Source of the DNA: Escherichia coli
Lineage (GTDB): Bacteria; Pseudomonadota; Gammaproteobacteria; Enterobacterales; Enterobacteriaceae
Assembly (NCBI RefSeq): GCF_017348835.2
Contig: NZ_CP071375.1
Length of the DNA: 64,000 bases
Direction: 5' to 3' (one strand)
The notes under the pieces were generated by a model. That model ran no database searches and was not told the DNA's origin. It saw nothing but the letters and a program-made list of their open reading frames with translations. This document shows, one piece after another, positions 2,264-27,877 of this stretch. Position numbers and translations under genes: made by a program. The first letter of the stretch is position 1; every line of letters begins with the position of its first letter.

Positions 2264-3154
2264 TTACCACACAGCAGCCAGCAGCGTATGCGAGTCCGGC
2301 ACCATAAAATCAACGGACATCATCACCGAGAGGGCAGTGATGGCGATGATAGAGAAGCCGAACAGCTTGCGCGCCCAGATTCTGTCATCAGCAACTTTAT
2401 AACCGCGCAGGGCCATACCTAACCACCAGACGCTCACCGCCGCGGCGACCACCAGATATTTATATCCAGCGTAACCGCCAAGAGAGAGCATCAGCGTGGC
2501 AACGGCAAAGGCGATGATATACAGCGTGATGTGATTCTTCGCCACCGAAATGCCTTTTACCACTGGCAATACCGGAATGTTTGCCGCCTGGTAATCCTTA
2601 AAGCGGAAAATGGCGATGGCATAGGAGTGAGGCATCTGCCACAGGCTGAAGATAGCCAGCAGGATCGCTGCGCCGCTATCGAACTCGCCGGTTACTGCAC
2701 AGTAGCCAATCACCGGCGGCGCAGCGCCGGAGAGCGAACCAATCAATGTGCCGTAGACCGAGTGGCGTTTCATGTACAGGCTATAAACGCCGACATAAAC
2801 CACAAAGCCCATCACCCCCAGCCAGCAGGCCAGCGGATTCGCGCCAAACCACAGCAGCATAAAGCCAGCAATACCCAGCAAGGTGGCGTACACCAGCGAG
2901 ACAGCAGGAGAGATCAGGCCTTTAACCAGCACCCGATTCTTCGTCCTTTCCATCTTTCTGTCGATATCCCTGTCGATGTAGTTGTTAAACACACAACCCG
3001 ACGCCACAACCAGTGACACCCCAACCAGCGTGTAGATAAACAGGGGATAATCAATGCTGCCCTTTGAGGCCAGCAGGAATCCCCCAATCACCGAGATCAG
3101 GTTGCCAAAGATGATGCCTGGTTTCGTTACTTGCAGGTATTGCTTAAACATCAT
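2264..3154 (-). CDS. cyoE: Heme O synthase (protoheme IX farnesyltransferase) CyoE, 296 aa
   Basis: ORF-track 2264..3199 minus; start at [19 protein letters not shown] to match known protein. Confidence 0.92.
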
Positions 3155-3165
3155 AACCGCCGCTC

Positions 3166-6102
<2,937 letters not shown>

Positions 6103-6111
6103 TCAACCCCT

Positions 6112-7059
<948 letters not shown>

Positions 7060-17363: not shown

Positions 17364-19341
<1,978 letters not shown>

Positions 19342-19349
19342 ACCGTTAA

Positions 19350-19757
<408 letters not shown>

Positions 19758-19776
19758 TTAATTTGCATAGTGGCAG

Positions 19777-19809
<33 letters not shown>

Positions 19810-19861
19810 TGACCTCTGTACTTATAACAGTTCTTATAACAACAAGTAAGGTTATTGCGCT

Positions 19862-20260
19862 ATGCAAACACAAATTAAAGTTCGTGGATATCATCTTGAT
19901 GTTTACCAGCACGTTAACAACGCCCGCTACCTTGAGTTTCTCGAAGAAGCCCGCTGGGATGGGCTGGAAAACAGCGACAGTTTTCAGTGGATGACCGCCC
20001 ATAACATCGCTTTCGTGGTGGTGAATATCAATATTAACTATCGCCGTCCGGCAGTATTGAGCGACCTGTTAACTATCACCAGTCAGTTGCAGCAATTAAA
20101 TGGAAAGAGCGGCATTTTAAGTCAGGTCATCACTCTTGAGCCGGAAGGGCAGGTGGTAGCCGACGCGCTCATTACGTTTGTTTGTATCGATCTCAAAACG
20201 CAGAAGGCTTTAGCGCTGGAAGGGGAGCTGCGCGAAAAGCTGGAGCAGATGGTTAAGTAA
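19862..20260 (+). CDS. fadM: Long-chain acyl-CoA thioesterase III FadM (hotdog fold), 132 aa
   Basis: ORF-track full length; MQTQIKVRGYHLDVYQHVNNARYLEFLEEARW. Confidence 0.92.
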   Translation: MQTQIKVRGYHLDVYQHVNNARYLEFLEEARWDGLENSDSFQWMTAHNIAFVVVNININYRRPAVLSDLLTITSQLQQLNGKSGILSQVITLEPEGQVVADALITFVCIDLKTQKALALEGELREKLEQMVK

Positions 20261-20264
20261 ACGT

Positions 20265-20310
20265 TTTGTTGTGCCGGATGCTCATGCCGCATCCGGCAAC
20301 ATCCCGAGTA
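20265..20310. repeat. Single REP element between fadM and queC
   Basis: GCCGGATGCTCATGCCGCATCCGGCAAC palindromic REP-like motif. Confidence 0.65.
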
Positions 20311-20311
20311 A

Positions 20312-21007
20312 TTACTTCAACCCGGTCTTCTGCTTCATCGCTGCCATCACCGTCGGTTTATCGGCCAGATAATGATTCAAACCGTTGGCGCGTAAATTAC
20401 ATGCCGCACATTGACCGCAACCGTCGCCTTTAATGCCGTTATAGCAGGTCAGCGTTTCGTTACGGACTAAATCCAGCTTGCCGTAATAATCTGCCAGCGC
20501 CCAGGTTTCCGCTTTATCAATCCACATCAGCGGCGTTTCAAAACGAATCTCTTTCGCCATGCCCAGACTAACGGCATGGTTTAGTGCTTTCACAAATTCA
20601 TCGCGGCAATCCGGGTAACCGGAGAAGTCTGTTTCGCAGACCCCGGTAATCACCGCTTCTGCTTTCACCTGATACGCGTAAATCGCCGCCAGCGTCAGAA
20701 ACAAAATATTACGCCCAGGGACAAACGTATTAGGGATGCCATCGGCTTCAGGTTCATAATCTGGCACTGGAATGCTGTCACGCGTCAGACTGCTGACTGC
20801 CAGCTCATTAAGCAGGGTGACATCCAGCACCTTATGCGCGCGTGCACCCAGTTTCAGCGCCAGATCGCGCGCGACGTCGATCTCTGCGCGATGGCGCTGA
20901 CCGTAATCGAACGTCACGCAATGGACTTCATCATAGTGTTGCAATGCCTGCACCAGACAGGTTGTAGAGTCCTGGCCCCCACTGAATACAACGACAGCAC
21001 GTTTCAT
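20312..21007 (-). CDS. queC: 7-cyano-7-deazaguanine synthase QueC, 231 aa
   Basis: ORF-track full length; N-terminal PP-loop SGGQDS; C-terminal Zn-binding cysteines (CGQCAAC). Confidence 0.95.
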
Positions 21008-21070
21008 AAATCATCCTGCTAAATCGATAAAACGTTATGGTAACCCCTGTGGTTAACCCGGACCAGCTCT

Positions 21071-22771
21071 TCATTGCGACGGTGCGGGTAGCCAGGCTTC
21101 GGTAAATTCAAACCAGCCGCGCGGTGTCAGTCGCACACCGTTTACTCCGGGCGGCGCGCTAATGCGATAGTGATAGTTGAACAGTGGTGTCAGCGTTGCG
21201 TCTGCCATTAACTGGCTAAACACCGTTTTCAGGGCATTAAATCGGTTTTCCTCATAAGGCATTACTTGCACGGCATCCAGCGTTGATTGCAGATGTGCGT
21301 ATGTACTGGCAGTAAAAACATGCGGCCACAGCGGATCGCAGCGCAGCCACTGTTCAAGGGTATATTCCGGTGCTTCGCCAATTAATCTGTCGCCCATCAT
21401 GAGGTCTGCTTGATCCAGTGGCGTGGCACCGTCCCAGTTTTTCGCGTTATGAAAAACAATCTTTAGCTCGCAACCTTCTTCTGCCAGCGTCGTTCGTAGC
21501 TGTTCTGCCATGGCGTGAAGTTCCACGGGTAGGTGATAAACCAGCGTCAGTGTTTCAGGTAGTTTGACTTCCTCCGGAACTTGCCATTGTGGAATGGTCC
21601 AGCCTGGAAGCAATGCATTACTGGCGGTGATCAGGTTTTCTCCGACTTCTAACGTTTGTAGTAAGCCGGATTGATGAATAATGGTGATCACTTTTCGAGC
21701 CTGCCAGAGCGTCAGTCGGGGGCTTTTGCGCAACGTTAAATAGCAAAAACCTAAACTGATGCCGCTACTGACCTGACTGACCCGTTGCAGCTCCTCCGGT
21801 TTGCCGATGGTGATTTGCACGGGATGCCGACAACTGGTTCCCAAATCTTTTTCGAAAAGCGGCGGAGTTATCCAGTACTCAACCGCTTTAAGCAGCGGAT
21901 GACGTAAATGGTAATAATCATGGCTTTCCAGGCGCACCAGCTCCGCTGTGAATTGTGTTAAGCGAAAAGGACCCGTGCCGATCAGTGGGAATTGCGGATG
22001 CGCCAGATGGCTGCAATAGCTCGCCAGCCGGTGCGCAAGCCAGTAATCAGGGCGATGTAAAAAGAAGGTCAGACACTGCGGATGGGTGACTTCAATACGC
22101 TTCACGCTAATAAATAATTGATCCAGTGCTGGCAGTTGTAACAGCATCAATAATCGCTGGTGTAAGTGTGAGGCTTTTACTGCATCGCCGTTATGCCAGT
22201 GTAGGGTTGAACGAAGATAAAAGTCCCAGCGTAACCCGTCAGTAGAGGTTTCCCAGTGATGTGCTAAATCGCCAATCGGGCGCTGGGTATTATTATCGAA
22301 GCGGGTCAGGCCGGAAAATATCTGTCCGGCGAGATGCTGCTCAGCACGGCCGGGCAAAAAGCCCGGTTGTAGCGGTTCGAGCGGGCGATAGTAGGGAATA
22401 CGCAACGTGGGTGTATCGTTTTGCCATTGTCCGCCCATAAACGGCTGTAACAGAGTGCGCAGCTCACCTGGGGCCAGTTGCGCCAGCTCCAGCACATCTT
22501 GCTGCTTTCCGGTTTCCAGTGCCTTTTCCATCATCGCATTGCGTAGCGATTCTGGCGTGACCAGAAAGCGTAATTGTCCGCGCTTTCCGCGTCCTGACTG
22601 CGCCTGCCACTCCAGCCATCCCGCCTCTTGTGCCTGACGCAACAGCGTACGAACATGGCGTTCGCTGCAAAAACAGCGTTCGGCCAGTTCGCTGACGGTG
22701 ACGGTTTGCGGCTTTCCGGCGGAAGGTTGCCACAGACGTTGATACTGGTTAAGACGGTTGAGCAGTCGCAT
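21071..22771 (-). CDS. ybaE: Uncharacterised YbaE: N-terminal SgrR-like HTH fused to periplasmic solute-binding-like domain, 566 aa
   Basis: ORF-track 21071..22786 minus; start at MRLLNRLNQYQRLWQ; family assignment from recognition of the K-12 protein. Confidence 0.85.
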   Translation of the reverse strand: MRLLNRLNQYQRLWQPSAGKPQTVTVSELAERCFCSERHVRTLLRQAQEAGWLEWQAQSGRGKRGQLRFLVTPESLRNAMMEKALETGKQQDVLELAQLAPGELRTLLQPFMGGQWQNDTPTLRIPYYRPLEPLQPGFLPGRAEQHLAGQIFSGLTRFDNNTQRPIGDLAHHWETSTDGLRWDFYLRSTLHWHNGDAVKASHLHQRLLMLLQLPALDQLFISVKRIEVTHPQCLTFFLHRPDYWLAHRLASYCSHLAHPQFPLIGTGPFRLTQFTAELVRLESHDYYHLRHPLLKAVEYWITPPLFEKDLGTSCRHPVQITIGKPEELQRVSQVSSGISLGFCYLTLRKSPRLTLWQARKVITIIHQSGLLQTLEVGENLITASNALLPGWTIPQWQVPEEVKLPETLTLVYHLPVELHAMAEQLRTTLAEEGCELKIVFHNAKNWDGATPLDQADLMMGDRLIGEAPEYTLEQWLRCDPLWPHVFTASTYAHLQSTLDAVQVMPYEENRFNALKTVFSQLMADATLTPLFNYHYRISAPPGVNGVRLTPRGWFEFTEAWLPAPSQ

Positions 22772-22870
22772 ATAAACCCGGAACAATATTATTTAACTAT
22801 TCACTATTACTTCCGTATATATCAGGTGATACTCAATCACCATTAACCGTGTCACAGAGTGGAGAAAGAA

Positions 22871-23689
22871 ATGGCTCGTCTGGCAGCATTTGATATGGAT
22901 GGCACTTTATTGATGCCTGACCATCATTTAGGTGAGAAAACCCTCTCTACTTTGGCGCGACTGCGTGAACGCGACATTACCCTCACTTTTGCCACGGGGC
23001 GTCATGCGCTGGAGATGCAGCATATTCTCGGGGCGCTATCGCTGGATGCGTATTTGATTACCGGCAACGGAACGCGCGTGCATTCTCTGGAAGGTGAACT
23101 TTTACATCGTGATGATTTACCTGCGGATGTCGCGGAGCTGGTGCTGTATCAGCAATGGGATACCCGAGCAAGCATGCATATCTTCAATGACGATGGTTGG
23201 TTTACCGGGAAAGAGATCCCTGCGTTGTTGCAGGCATTTGTCTATAGCGGTTTTCGTTATCAGATAATCGATGTCAAAAAAATGCCACTCGGCAGCGTCA
23301 CCAAGATCTGCTTCTGTGGCGATCACGACGATCTTACACGCTTGCAGATCCAGCTACACGAAGCATTATCCGAGCGTGCACATTTGTGTTTTTCCGCCAC
23401 GGATTGCCTCGAAGTGCTGCCGGTGGGCTGCAATAAAGGCGCTGCACTGACGGTGCTGACCCAACATTTAGGTTTATCGTTGCGCGATTGCATGGCCTTT
23501 GGTGATGCGATGAACGATCGCGAAATGTTAGGCAGCGTCGGTAGCGGATTTATTATGGGCAATGCGATGCCGCAACTGCGCGCGGAGCTCCCGCATTTAC
23601 CGGTGATTGGACATTGCCGAAATCAGGCTGTCTCTCACTATTTGACGCACTGGCTGGACTATCCACATCTACCTTATTCCCCCGAATAA
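22871..23689 (+). CDS. cof: HMP-PP phosphatase Cof (HAD superfamily), 272 aa
   Basis: ORF-track 22859..23689; start at [14 protein letters not shown] (HAD motif I DxDGT). Confidence 0.93.
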
Positions 23690-23842
23690 CGAGATCCCTT
23701 CCAGCACCGGGCAATTGCCCGGTTTTTTTTTGCGTTGAATTTGTCATTTTGTGCCGTGGTGTTTAAACCGCACAGAATAAATTGTCGTGATTTCACCTTT
23801 AAAATAAAATTAAAAGAGAAAAAAATTCTCTGTGGAAGGGCT

Positions 23843-24301
23843 ATGTTAGATAAAATTGACCGTAAGCTGCTGGCCTTACTGCAGCAGGATTGCACCCTCT
23901 CTTTGCAGGCACTGGCTGAAGCCGTTAATCTGACAACCACCCCTTGCTGGAAGCGCCTGAAACGGCTGGAGGACGACGGTATCCTTATCGGCAAAGTCGC
24001 CCTGCTGGATCCGGAAAAAATAGGCCTCGGCCTGACCGCCTTTGTGCTGATAAAAACGCAACATCACAGCAGCGAATGGTATTGCCGCTTTGTCACGGTG
24101 GTTACCGAAATGCCAGAAGTGCTGGGGTTCTGGCGCATGGCTGGTGAATACGATTATCTGATGCGCGTCCAGGTTGCCGACATGAAACGCTACGACGAGT
24201 TTTATAAGCGTCTGGTAAACAGCGTGCCGGGGCTGTCGGACGTCACTTCCAGCTTCGCGATGGAACAGATTAAATACACCACTTCTTTACCCATCGAATA
24301 A
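23843..24301 (+). CDS. decR: Lrp/AsnC-family transcriptional regulator DecR (YbaO), 152 aa
   Basis: ORF-track 23735..24301; start at [16 protein letters not shown]; N-terminal HTH typical of AsnC family. Confidence 0.9.
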
Positions 24302-24330
24302 ATATCCAGAATCAGGTCAGGACACAACGC

Positions 24331-27877
<3,547 letters not shown>

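Follow-up and report, generated by a model that had tools for sequence, protein, structure and literature searches.

The ybaE gene of Escherichia coli encodes what is very probably a cytoplasmic two-domain regulator, judging from its sequence and structural models. We propose, with a probability of roughly 55%, that YbaE is a ligand-sensing one-component regulator controlling itself and the divergent gene cof. The gene occupies positions 21071..22771 on the minus strand of the window, by which we mean the whole 64,000-nucleotide stretch of E. coli DNA that was analyzed. It is a gene already known: its K-12 counterpart, b0445, is annotated as 'uncharacterized protein YbaE', and 5424 of the 5426 complete E. 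coli genomes annotate this DNA as 'ybaE: SgrR family transcriptional regulator'. The preliminary description of this region regarded the ligand and regulon of YbaE as unknown, and the literature that we found agrees. Namely, a 2009 survey of SgrR homologues lists YbaE as a protein of unknown function, and it is otherwise mentioned only in screens and transcriptomes. YbaE is thus among the remaining E. coli K-12 proteins that have a clear regulator architecture without an assigned signal, DNA site, or target. The account given here is a correct one of a known uncharacterized gene, now with a sharper hypothesis, in which a conserved 60-base stretch beside ybaE is a concrete place to seek the signal and targets.

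The list of open reading frames confirmed the previously described product of 566 amino acids. The frame opens with the ATG at 22771 and runs through 566 codons to the TGA stop at 21071-21073. The mechanical reading frame begins at a TTG at 22786 (571 aa), but in other genera the added stretch falls out of frame, and the ATG is therefore the ybaE start. The dN/dS ratio of 0.05-0.13, found in both domains, indicates purifying selection, and together with its length it places the ybaE reading frame far beyond chance.

The preliminary description had proposed a helix-turn-helix region fused to a solute-binding domain, and the domain search, set beforehand as the refuting test of this architecture, supported both parts. 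Pfam SgrR_N (PF12793) matched residues 7-119 (E 4.4e-39; 133.7 bits, cutoff 24), and SBP_bac_5 (PF00496) gave a partial match at residues 165-303 only (E 7e-17; 62 bits, cutoff 32.4). The alignment to the NCBIfam SgrR model spans residues 8-564, that is, the full length of the protein, and the structural and profile comparisons agree with it. The AlphaFold model (pLDDT 88.9, pTM 0.84) shows a winged-helix topology followed by a binding-protein fold, and the N-terminal topology is the same in two AlphaFold models. The DNA-binding region (residues 1-119) is encoded at 22415..22771 and the sensor domain (residues ~120-566) at 21074..22414, both on the minus strand. The Foldseek search with the YbaE model returned end-to-end matches to NikA, DppA, CntA, and OppA (~510-535 columns, E 1e-27 to 1e-23). 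When the family profile was compared with the PDB, solved family-5 binding proteins matched profile positions 116-558, with a best E of 2e-48.

In the modeled winged helix-turn-helix, helix H26-33 is followed by the recognition helix H37-49, which is associated with C35-S36-E37-R38-H39, and then by a wing (E53-56/E65-69) with G60-R61-G62 and three linker helices. C35, S36, R38, and H39 as well as G60-R61-G62 are invariant in YbaE, SgrR, and other paralogues. Sequence-specific DNA binding and transcriptional control by YbaE are predicted, with indirect support from these invariant residues of the recognition helix and wing and from the conserved spacer element described below.

The C-terminal domain corresponds to the complete cluster-C fold of NikA, DppA, OppA, CntA, and the opine binders (target-normalized TM ~0.6-0.7), at only 13-17% identity. 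These solute-binding proteins serve uptake, whereas the YbaE fold is presumably a cytoplasmic sensor: it differs from them in the missing signal peptide, in the fusion to a DNA-binding region, and in having no transporter partner genes nearby. The regulators of the LacI/GalR and LysR families likewise join a DNA-binding module to a binding-protein fold whose two lobes close around a small molecule in the cytoplasm, and the principle is the same as in YbaE. They use other DNA-binding domains and smaller folds, of cluster B or type 2; a cluster-C fold of the size seen here, about 450 residues, typifies the SgrR family.

YbaE is a full-length paralogue of SgrR and not SgrR itself. BLASTP aligned residues 9-565 to K-12 SgrR at 28% identity (E 3e-55), and the SgrR_N plus SBP_bac_5 architecture is common to the two proteins over their full length. 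The recognition helices are nearly identical (CSERHVRTLL against CSRRHMRTLL), and the GRGKR wing is shared. Both genes face a divergent neighbor across a short spacer, 67 bp from the sgrR start codon to the sgrS start as compared with 99 bp between ybaE and cof, and a Cof-type HAD phosphatase appears in both systems, namely YigL via SgrS and Cof beside ybaE. Meanwhile, YbaE scored 232 bits against the SgrR equivalog model, below its 476-bit cutoff, and the 2009 survey puts it in a separate clade (Clade 2). The sgrR gene lies at the thiB-leuD site and ybaE at the ppiD-queC-cof site. An sgrS/sgrT partner is absent at ybaE, where the neighbor is the protein gene cof and no Rfam match was found at E <= 1 within positions 19000-25000; in the true SgrR relative fetched for comparison, SgrT adjoins. 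The two spacers could not be aligned, save for the word GTTCC before the start codon.

The previously described divergence of ybaE from cof was borne out, with a spacer of 99 bp (22772..22870) that must hold both promoters. It should be noted that queC had been described as convergent to ybaE, which is not the case, as the two genes lie in tandem on the same minus strand with a 63-bp gap. The cof gene (22871..23689, plus strand), the proposed target, encodes a Cof-type HAD-IIB phosphatase that matched the NCBIfam HMP-PP phosphatase equivalog with 555 bits, the second-best family being YigL with 221 bits. Among the 80 Enterobacteriaceae loci fetched, the divergent cof and ybaE followed by queC were kept in every locus reaching both neighbors, and the same order was found at a 45%-identical ortholog (L082), whose genome lacks other neighbors through loss. 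Since the whole region keeps its gene order across Enterobacteriaceae, the conserved position beside cof argues only weakly for functional coupling.

Of the 80 related loci, most have a spacer of 93-102 bp. At least 95% conservation was found at 38 of the 99 spacer columns, and all of these lie within the ybaE-proximal 60 bp. The first conserved block, AGTATCACCTGATATATACGGAAGTAATAGTGAATA on the ybaE strand (22798..22833, minus strand), is a candidate for overlapping core promoters plus an operator. In the 70-71 non-redundant spacers from Enterobacteriaceae, most of its columns reach 95% conservation or more, the cof-proximal part of the spacer being variable, and the block is unique within the window. 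A consensus scanner found no promoter in the spacer at its threshold; the block may nevertheless contain a ybaE element, TGnTATATA (22824-22816), and a cof element, GATACT (22828-22833, plus strand). The second block, TTGTTCCGGGTTT on the ybaE strand (22774..22786, minus strand), ends 2 nt before the ybaE ATG. It is a weak ribosome-binding region, and it possibly forms an imperfect inverted repeat together with the block 1 sequence CGGAAGTAAT, as its second arm. By itself, this 13-mer is not a rare word in the window when 2 mismatches are allowed.

Both blocks extend beyond close relatives. Block 1 was recognizable upstream of the 45%-identical ortholog and of a 40%-identical homologue (L083), and related forms of block 2 stand at the same place, GTTCAGGATTT in the former and GTTCAGGTTTTT in the latter. 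The elements CAGTAT, CGGAA, TGAAyA, and TGTTCmGG-TTT also precede the 40%-identical homologue, whose divergent neighbors are GFO/IDH/MocA oxidoreductases and not cof. As the same elements stand upstream of a homologue with another divergent neighbor, the conserved element follows the regulator gene.

The inverted-repeat readings that involve the conserved elements are imperfect and not uniform, with CGGAAG...GTTCCG in Enterobacteriaceae compared with TGAACA-N12/13-TGTTCA in the distant homologues. A perfect inverted repeat, GGTGAT-N5-ATCACC (22825-22841), was rejected as an operator because its conservation is limited to Escherichia. The idea that the ybaE leader holds a cis-regulatory RNA found no support: besides the lack of an Rfam match, the fold energy was no better than that of shuffled sequences (z = +0.17), and compensatory change does not preserve the CGGAA/TTCCG pairing in either the 45%-identical ortholog or the 40%-identical homologue.

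In the regulation that we propose, the N-terminal winged helix-turn-helix of cytoplasmic YbaE would bind DNA, and the family-5 domain, carrying no export signal, would act as an intracellular ligand sensor. The closure of the two lobes on the ligand would presumably alter DNA binding or activation. YbaE would act on the spacer shared with cof through the near-invariant 60 bp beside its own start codon and from there regulate both the cof promoter and its own weak one. SgrR reportedly (Vanderpool and Gottesman 2007) binds the short sgrR-sgrS spacer, and by analogy an action of YbaE on the ybaE-cof spacer appears quite conceivable, at somewhat less than even odds. Meanwhile, the 2009 survey proposed the genes divergent from sgrR homologues as their targets. 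If YbaE indeed uses the spacer element as its operator and has Cof as its target, a y-gene gains a function, Cof becomes tied to a regulated stress response, and a second member of the SgrR family becomes usable to find what large binding-protein sensor domains bind.

More speculatively, the signal of YbaE would be a phosphorylated metabolite whose build-up Cof relieves, in a scheme mirroring SgrR -> SgrS -> YigL, in which SgrR controls the synthesis of SgrS and SgrS in turn activates yigL (PMC4021124). The candidate signals would include a pyrimidine pyrophosphate (HMP-PP or a toxic analogue), pyridoxal phosphate, and a sugar phosphate. The SgrR analogy says nothing firm about the chemistry of the YbaE ligand; that this ligand is phosphorylated we consider doubtful. 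An equally doubtful extension would make YbaE-Cof a second, direct circuit of phospho-metabolite stress in parallel to SgrR-SgrS-YigL, in which the binding-protein domain of YbaE senses the accumulating compound and YbaE binds the 60-bp element, activates Cof, and represses itself. A general link between the SgrR family and HAD phosphatases found no support, as no such phosphatase was seen beside other family members in the contexts inspected (six proteins, five loci).

The conserved spacer could also be explained without YbaE binding, by two weak divergent promoters that overlap, together with a ribosome-binding region and the site of a different factor. YbaE would then be a genuine ligand-sensing regulator with its targets elsewhere, for example in the catabolism or transport of carbon sources, and the 60 bp would hold promoters, the ribosome-binding region, and perhaps some other site. 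We regard this as possible although unlikely. Block 1 can plausibly be read as holding weak promoter elements in both directions, distant genes (setA and alaC) are among the SgrR targets, and other SgrR-family members adjoin PTS, MFS, or oxidoreductase genes. The ybaE gene is induced in carbon limitation, where it resembles the Crp-cAMP-dependent catabolic regulators, and its own dependence on Crp-cAMP is apparently indirect (PMC6390033). A moderately conserved TGTGA word near cof might suggest direct CRP control, but the published band-shift with the ybaE promoter was negative (PMC6390033). Against distant targets stands the extent of conservation in the spacer, since at least 95% over ~38 positions exceeds what is seen at the adjacent queC promoter. 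The retention of the elements upstream of the homologue with another divergent neighbor is also what one would expect of a site that belongs with the regulator itself. YbaE was absent from the ChIP-exo candidates of a ChIP-exo paper, in whose supplements it occurs only in the differential-expression table, as b0445.

The downstream gene queC (20312..21007, minus strand; NCBIfam QueC equivalog, 488 bits) suggests another role, in which YbaE controls the synthesis of the queuosine precursor by regulating queC or being co-transcribed with it. The two genes share a strand across the short gap, in which no terminator-like site was found, and the order of ybaE and queC is kept in all 80 loci and at the 45%-identical ortholog. 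Nevertheless, we find this role improbable. The gap has its own promoter-like element (21037..21065, minus strand), with TGGTCC (-35-like) and TACCAT (-10-like) separated by 17 nt, as well as an SD sequence. In 72 sequences of this spacer, GCTGG and TACCAT form the conserved columns; only 14 of the 63 columns are at least 95% conserved, and conservation is confined to the -35, -10, and SD positions. In addition, the 40%-identical homologue has the upstream element without queC, the Rfam search of positions 19000-25000 gave no preQ1 riboswitch or other element, and the K-12 RNA-seq table in the supplement of the ChIP-exo paper gives mean counts of 285 for b0444 (queC) and 53 for b0445 (ybaE), a roughly five-fold difference. 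An obligatory ybaE-queC operon was rejected in view of the conserved promoter-like element, with read-through still possible. We conclude that queC, with its own conserved promoter-like element, is probably not the main target of YbaE. The word TCCGGGTT, which occurs before the ybaE start and again just after the ybaE stop, was attributed to chance, as the downstream copy lies in the non-conserved promoter spacer.

It is very improbable that YbaE has ceased to bind DNA or a ligand for regulation, being a decaying paralogue or working through protein-protein contacts. The low expression of ybaE and the lack of a firmly assigned phenotype would agree with decay, as would the shortened alleles that occur in some strains (473 aa in L018, and clusters of 444 and 487 aa). 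On the other hand, both domains are under purifying selection, the DNA-reading residues are invariant, and ybaE is nearly universal in E. coli. Across genera, nearly all orthologues have retained 565-567 aa, the exceptions being a few C-terminally extended forms of 578 aa.

Older annotations and some papers present YbaE as the exported, periplasmic binding component of an ABC transporter, which would suit its family-5 fold but is scarcely credible, being contradicted by the sequence: the protein has a conserved winged helix at its N-terminus, is homologous over its full length to the cytoplasmic transcription factor SgrR, and lacks a signal peptide, a hydrophobic N-terminus, and adjacent permease or ATPase genes. 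Namely, hydropathy analysis revealed no signal peptide or lipoprotein signal at the N-terminus (MRLLNRLNQYQRLWQPSAGKPQ), where the maximum 10-residue hydropathy in the first 40 residues is 0.53, and no membrane segment in YbaE. Permease and ATPase genes were not found beside ybaE in the window or in the related loci reaching its neighbors, which are queC and cof. YbaE is accordingly predicted to be cytoplasmic.

The nearest solved folds to the N-terminal domain of YbaE are winged-helix DNA binders of the MarR family and others, and these matches are weak (E ~1e-3). Residues 1-119 model as helix-strand-helix-helix-strand-strand plus a wing, for which the best solved matches are of the MarR type (TM 0.42-0.47). 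The Pfam search gave no MarR match in YbaE at E <= 0.1, only sub-threshold ones to HTH_36 and Rrf2. The MarR family has dimerization helices, whereas YbaE has instead a linker to the binding-protein domain. The designation 'MarR-type HTH domain' occurs in some source annotations.

The ybaE reading frame was located on the minus strand between an ATG at 22771 and a stop codon ending at 21071, and it encodes 566 aa. The ORF list extends the frame mechanically to a TTG at 22786 (571 aa). This TTG was rejected as the start, since the distance from the conserved upstream sequence to the ATG varies by 0–5 nt or more in other genera and the TTG is therefore out of frame there; the ATG assumed in the preliminary description was thus retained. 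The 2.1 kb around ybaE found a match in 5424 of 5426 complete E. coli genomes, where the gene is annotated as "ybaE: SgrR family transcriptional regulator" with queC and cof flanking it. The K-12 counterpart is b0445, "uncharacterized protein YbaE" (465612–467312, minus strand). Earlier work had already established the gene, its architecture and the family to which it belongs: YbaE was assigned to Clade 2 in the 2009 survey of SgrR homologues, and Pfam, COG and RefSeq carry corresponding names. Our additions to this record are the complete binding-protein fold, a putative queC promoter, an operator-like conserved element with evidence of its tie to the regulator gene, and a parallel between Cof and YigL, offered as a testable hypothesis.

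The HMM domain search agreed with the proposed fusion of HTH and solute-binding domains, matching Pfam SgrR_N at residues 7–119 (E = 4.4e-39) and SBP_bac_5 at residues 165–303 (E = 7e-17), the latter over the first 157 of 368 profile positions only. The NCBIfam SgrR model aligned over residues 8–564 and scored 232 bits against a cutoff of 476, and K-12 SgrR was 28% identical to YbaE over the whole length (BLASTP, E = 3e-55). As the alignment is full-length and the score falls below the SgrR cutoff, YbaE is a full-length paralogue of SgrR and not SgrR itself.

The AlphaFold model of YbaE, for which 75 family sequences were used as input, was confident (pLDDT 88.9, pTM 0.84) and displayed a winged-helix topology at residues 1–70, three helices up to residue 111 and then a large two-lobed alpha/beta domain. 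Foldseek aligned it with the solved NikA, DppA, CntA, OppA, SapA and opine binders over ~510–535 columns (E = 1e-27 to 1e-23, 13–17% identity), and the family profile matched solved family-5 binding proteins at positions 116–558 (best E = 2e-48). These matches indicate that the modelled binding-protein fold is complete and that Pfam covers a third of it. The fused HTH–SBP architecture was present in none of the solved structures matched. The N-terminal 119 residues modelled separately (pLDDT 86.7) were closest, though weakly (E about 1e-3), to MarR-type and other winged-helix DNA binders. Without exception, YbaE orthologues, SgrR and other paralogues share four residues of the recognition helix (C35, S36, R38 and H39) and G60-R61-G62 in the wing.

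The N-terminus of YbaE is hydrophilic and no membrane segment was found in its sequence, which places the protein in the cytoplasm; some papers call it "periplasmic" or an "ABC transporter binding protein", labels that were set aside as annotation carry-over. YbaE showed every SgrR-family feature that could be tested, and it fell outside both SgrR proper and the periplasmic transporter components. In comparisons with K-12, with E. albertii and with cryptic Escherichia lineages, dN/dS was 0.05–0.13 and similar in both domains, and nearly all orthologues across genera have 565–567 aa, with a few C-terminally extended forms of 578 aa. YbaE is a cytoplasmic protein under selection that combines a conserved winged helix with a complete binding-protein fold. 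Among the variants, one E. coli genome (locus L018, 5001–6347) carries a truncated ybaE of 473 aa, and two N-terminally shortened protein clusters were seen (P0025, 444 aa; P0016, 487 aa), one with 305 member sequences. A single database entry (P0002, 818 aa) joins YbaE to QueC and is probably a sequencing or stop-loss artefact.

The divergent orientation of cof was confirmed: its ATG lies at 22871 on the plus strand, preceded by GGAG, and a 99-bp spacer separates it from ybaE. By contrast, queC (20312–21007, minus strand), previously described as convergent, lies on the same strand as ybaE and starts 63 bp downstream of its stop codon; this was the only error in an otherwise correct description. 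For the scan of relatives, one genome per species was used and the best 80 of 243 confirmed relatives were kept, all of them Enterobacteriaceae with 66–96% identity. Among these 80, every locus reaching far enough had the order cof (divergent), ybaE, queC (same strand). YbaE and Cof diverge faster than QueC, DecR or MdlA, with identities in distant genera of 66–72% for YbaE and 67–79% for Cof versus 87–94% for QueC. In a 3.5-Mb genome that encodes an ortholog with 45% identity, the locus retains cof, ybaE and queC and lacks fadM and mdlAB. Outside Escherichia (L005–L080, about 2880–4080 in locus coordinates), the interval between decR (ybaO) and cof is ~1.2 kb longer, leaving room for one gene absent from the window, possibly the cysteine desulfhydrase gene cdsH.

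Within the 63-bp gap between ybaE and queC, conservation is confined to GCTGG(TC), TACCAT 17 nt further along and the ribosome-binding site, with 14 of its 63 columns conserved to 95% or more; GCTGG and TACCAT are kept across 72 such spacers. The promoter-like pair TGGTCC, 17 nt, TACCAT (21037–21065) directly follows the ybaE stop codon and has the appearance of a separate promoter for queC. Between the two genes no terminator-like site was found, so read-through from ybaE into queC is possible but not required.

Of the 99 columns in the ybaE–cof spacer (22772–22870), 38 reach a conservation of at least 95%, all within the 60 bp nearest ybaE; the cof-proximal 40 bp vary freely. Column conservation defines block 1 (22833–22798, AGTAT..C.TG..ATATACGGAAGTAATAGTGAATA), which occurs once in the window, and block 2 (22786–22774, TTGTTCCGGGTTT). 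The same words recur, in the same order and equally far from the start codon, before the 45%-identical ortholog and a 40%-identical homologue. As the neighbour of the latter is not cof, the element follows the regulator gene. An RNA structure was rejected, because the element had no Rfam match, the ybaE leader folded no better than its shuffles and compensatory change was not found. An imperfect inverted repeat, CGGAAGTAAT...ATTGTTCCG, can be inferred within the element, and distant homologues have a perfect TGAACA-N12/13-TGTTCA in its place. Candidate promoter parts are an extended -10-like TGATATATA for ybaE (22824–22816) and a -10-like GATACT hexamer for cof (22828–22833), with weak -35 candidates inside block 1. 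Block 1 also holds the consecutive in-frame stops TAA TAG TGA (22802–22810, ybaE strand, GTAATAGTGA), which would end any translation arriving from upstream and are probably a coincidence of conserved sequence. In the otherwise variable cof leader region, the TGTGA word of CTGTGAC (22850–22856, ybaE strand) is 80–95% conserved across genera and resembles a CRP half-site or a -35-like GTGACA.

The adjacency of cof and ybaE is locked across a short, unusually conserved spacer. Vanderpool and Gottesman reportedly described in 2007 the self-repression of SgrR from a short shared spacer. By analogy with SgrR, YbaE probably binds the conserved ybaE–cof element and represses its own gene, and cof would probably be under its control, with a small molecule as the cue. 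In the 2009 survey, SgrR-family genes were often divergent from sugar-related genes, which were proposed as their targets; SgrR activates sgrS, setA and alaC. Cof belongs to the Cof-type HAD-IIB phosphatases, and the family that it matches next best is YigL (221 bits), a phosphatase induced through SgrR–SgrS that clears sugar phosphates (PMC4021124). The parallel with the SgrR–SgrS circuit is suggestive, and from the kinship of Cof with YigL and the role of YigL one might reasonably guess that YbaE senses a phosphorylated metabolite.

According to published data, ybaE is weakly expressed. It is upregulated in glucose limitation in a Crp-cAMP-dependent manner, and no Crp binding to its promoter was detected in a band-shift assay (PMC6390033). 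It was also up 3.7-fold in a biofilm comparison, listed beside anaerobic hydrogenase genes (PMC5389662), and the Keio ybaE knockout showed lacritin peptide resistance in an unvalidated screen.

Family members with 28–40% identity to YbaE occupy unrelated gene contexts: divergent from two GFO/IDH/MocA oxidoreductases or from an MFS gene, after a PTS EIICB gene, adjoining a TetR gene, or about 1.8 kb from a type VI secretion cluster. One distant member is a true SgrR with SgrT alongside. On a metagenome contig (L086), two paralogues in tandem (3001–4677 and 5131–6795, sharing 34% and 30% identity with YbaE) have fimbrial usher/adhesin genes on one side and a LuxR-type (GerE) regulator on the other, a setting that does not resemble the sugar-related contexts reported for the SgrR family.

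The ybaE allele itself is mosaic. A ~2.4-kb patch (~19400–21780), spanning the 3' part of ybaV, fadM, queC and ybaE codons ~330–566, is 86–94% identical to K-12 and 95–98% to Escherichia whittamii (L002); the window is otherwise ordinary E. coli, with 98–100% identity to K-12 on either side. One recombination boundary lies inside ybaE. The patch holds ~230 of the 288 differences from K-12 in 18449–25460, and 27 of the 28 amino-acid differences of YbaE fall at residues 354–523. Owing to the patch, only one genome (strain PE164, pig) matched at 100% and most at about 94%. Within mdlA (~24990–25130), about 25 further differences from K-12 are clustered over a short stretch, which may be another small recombination patch.
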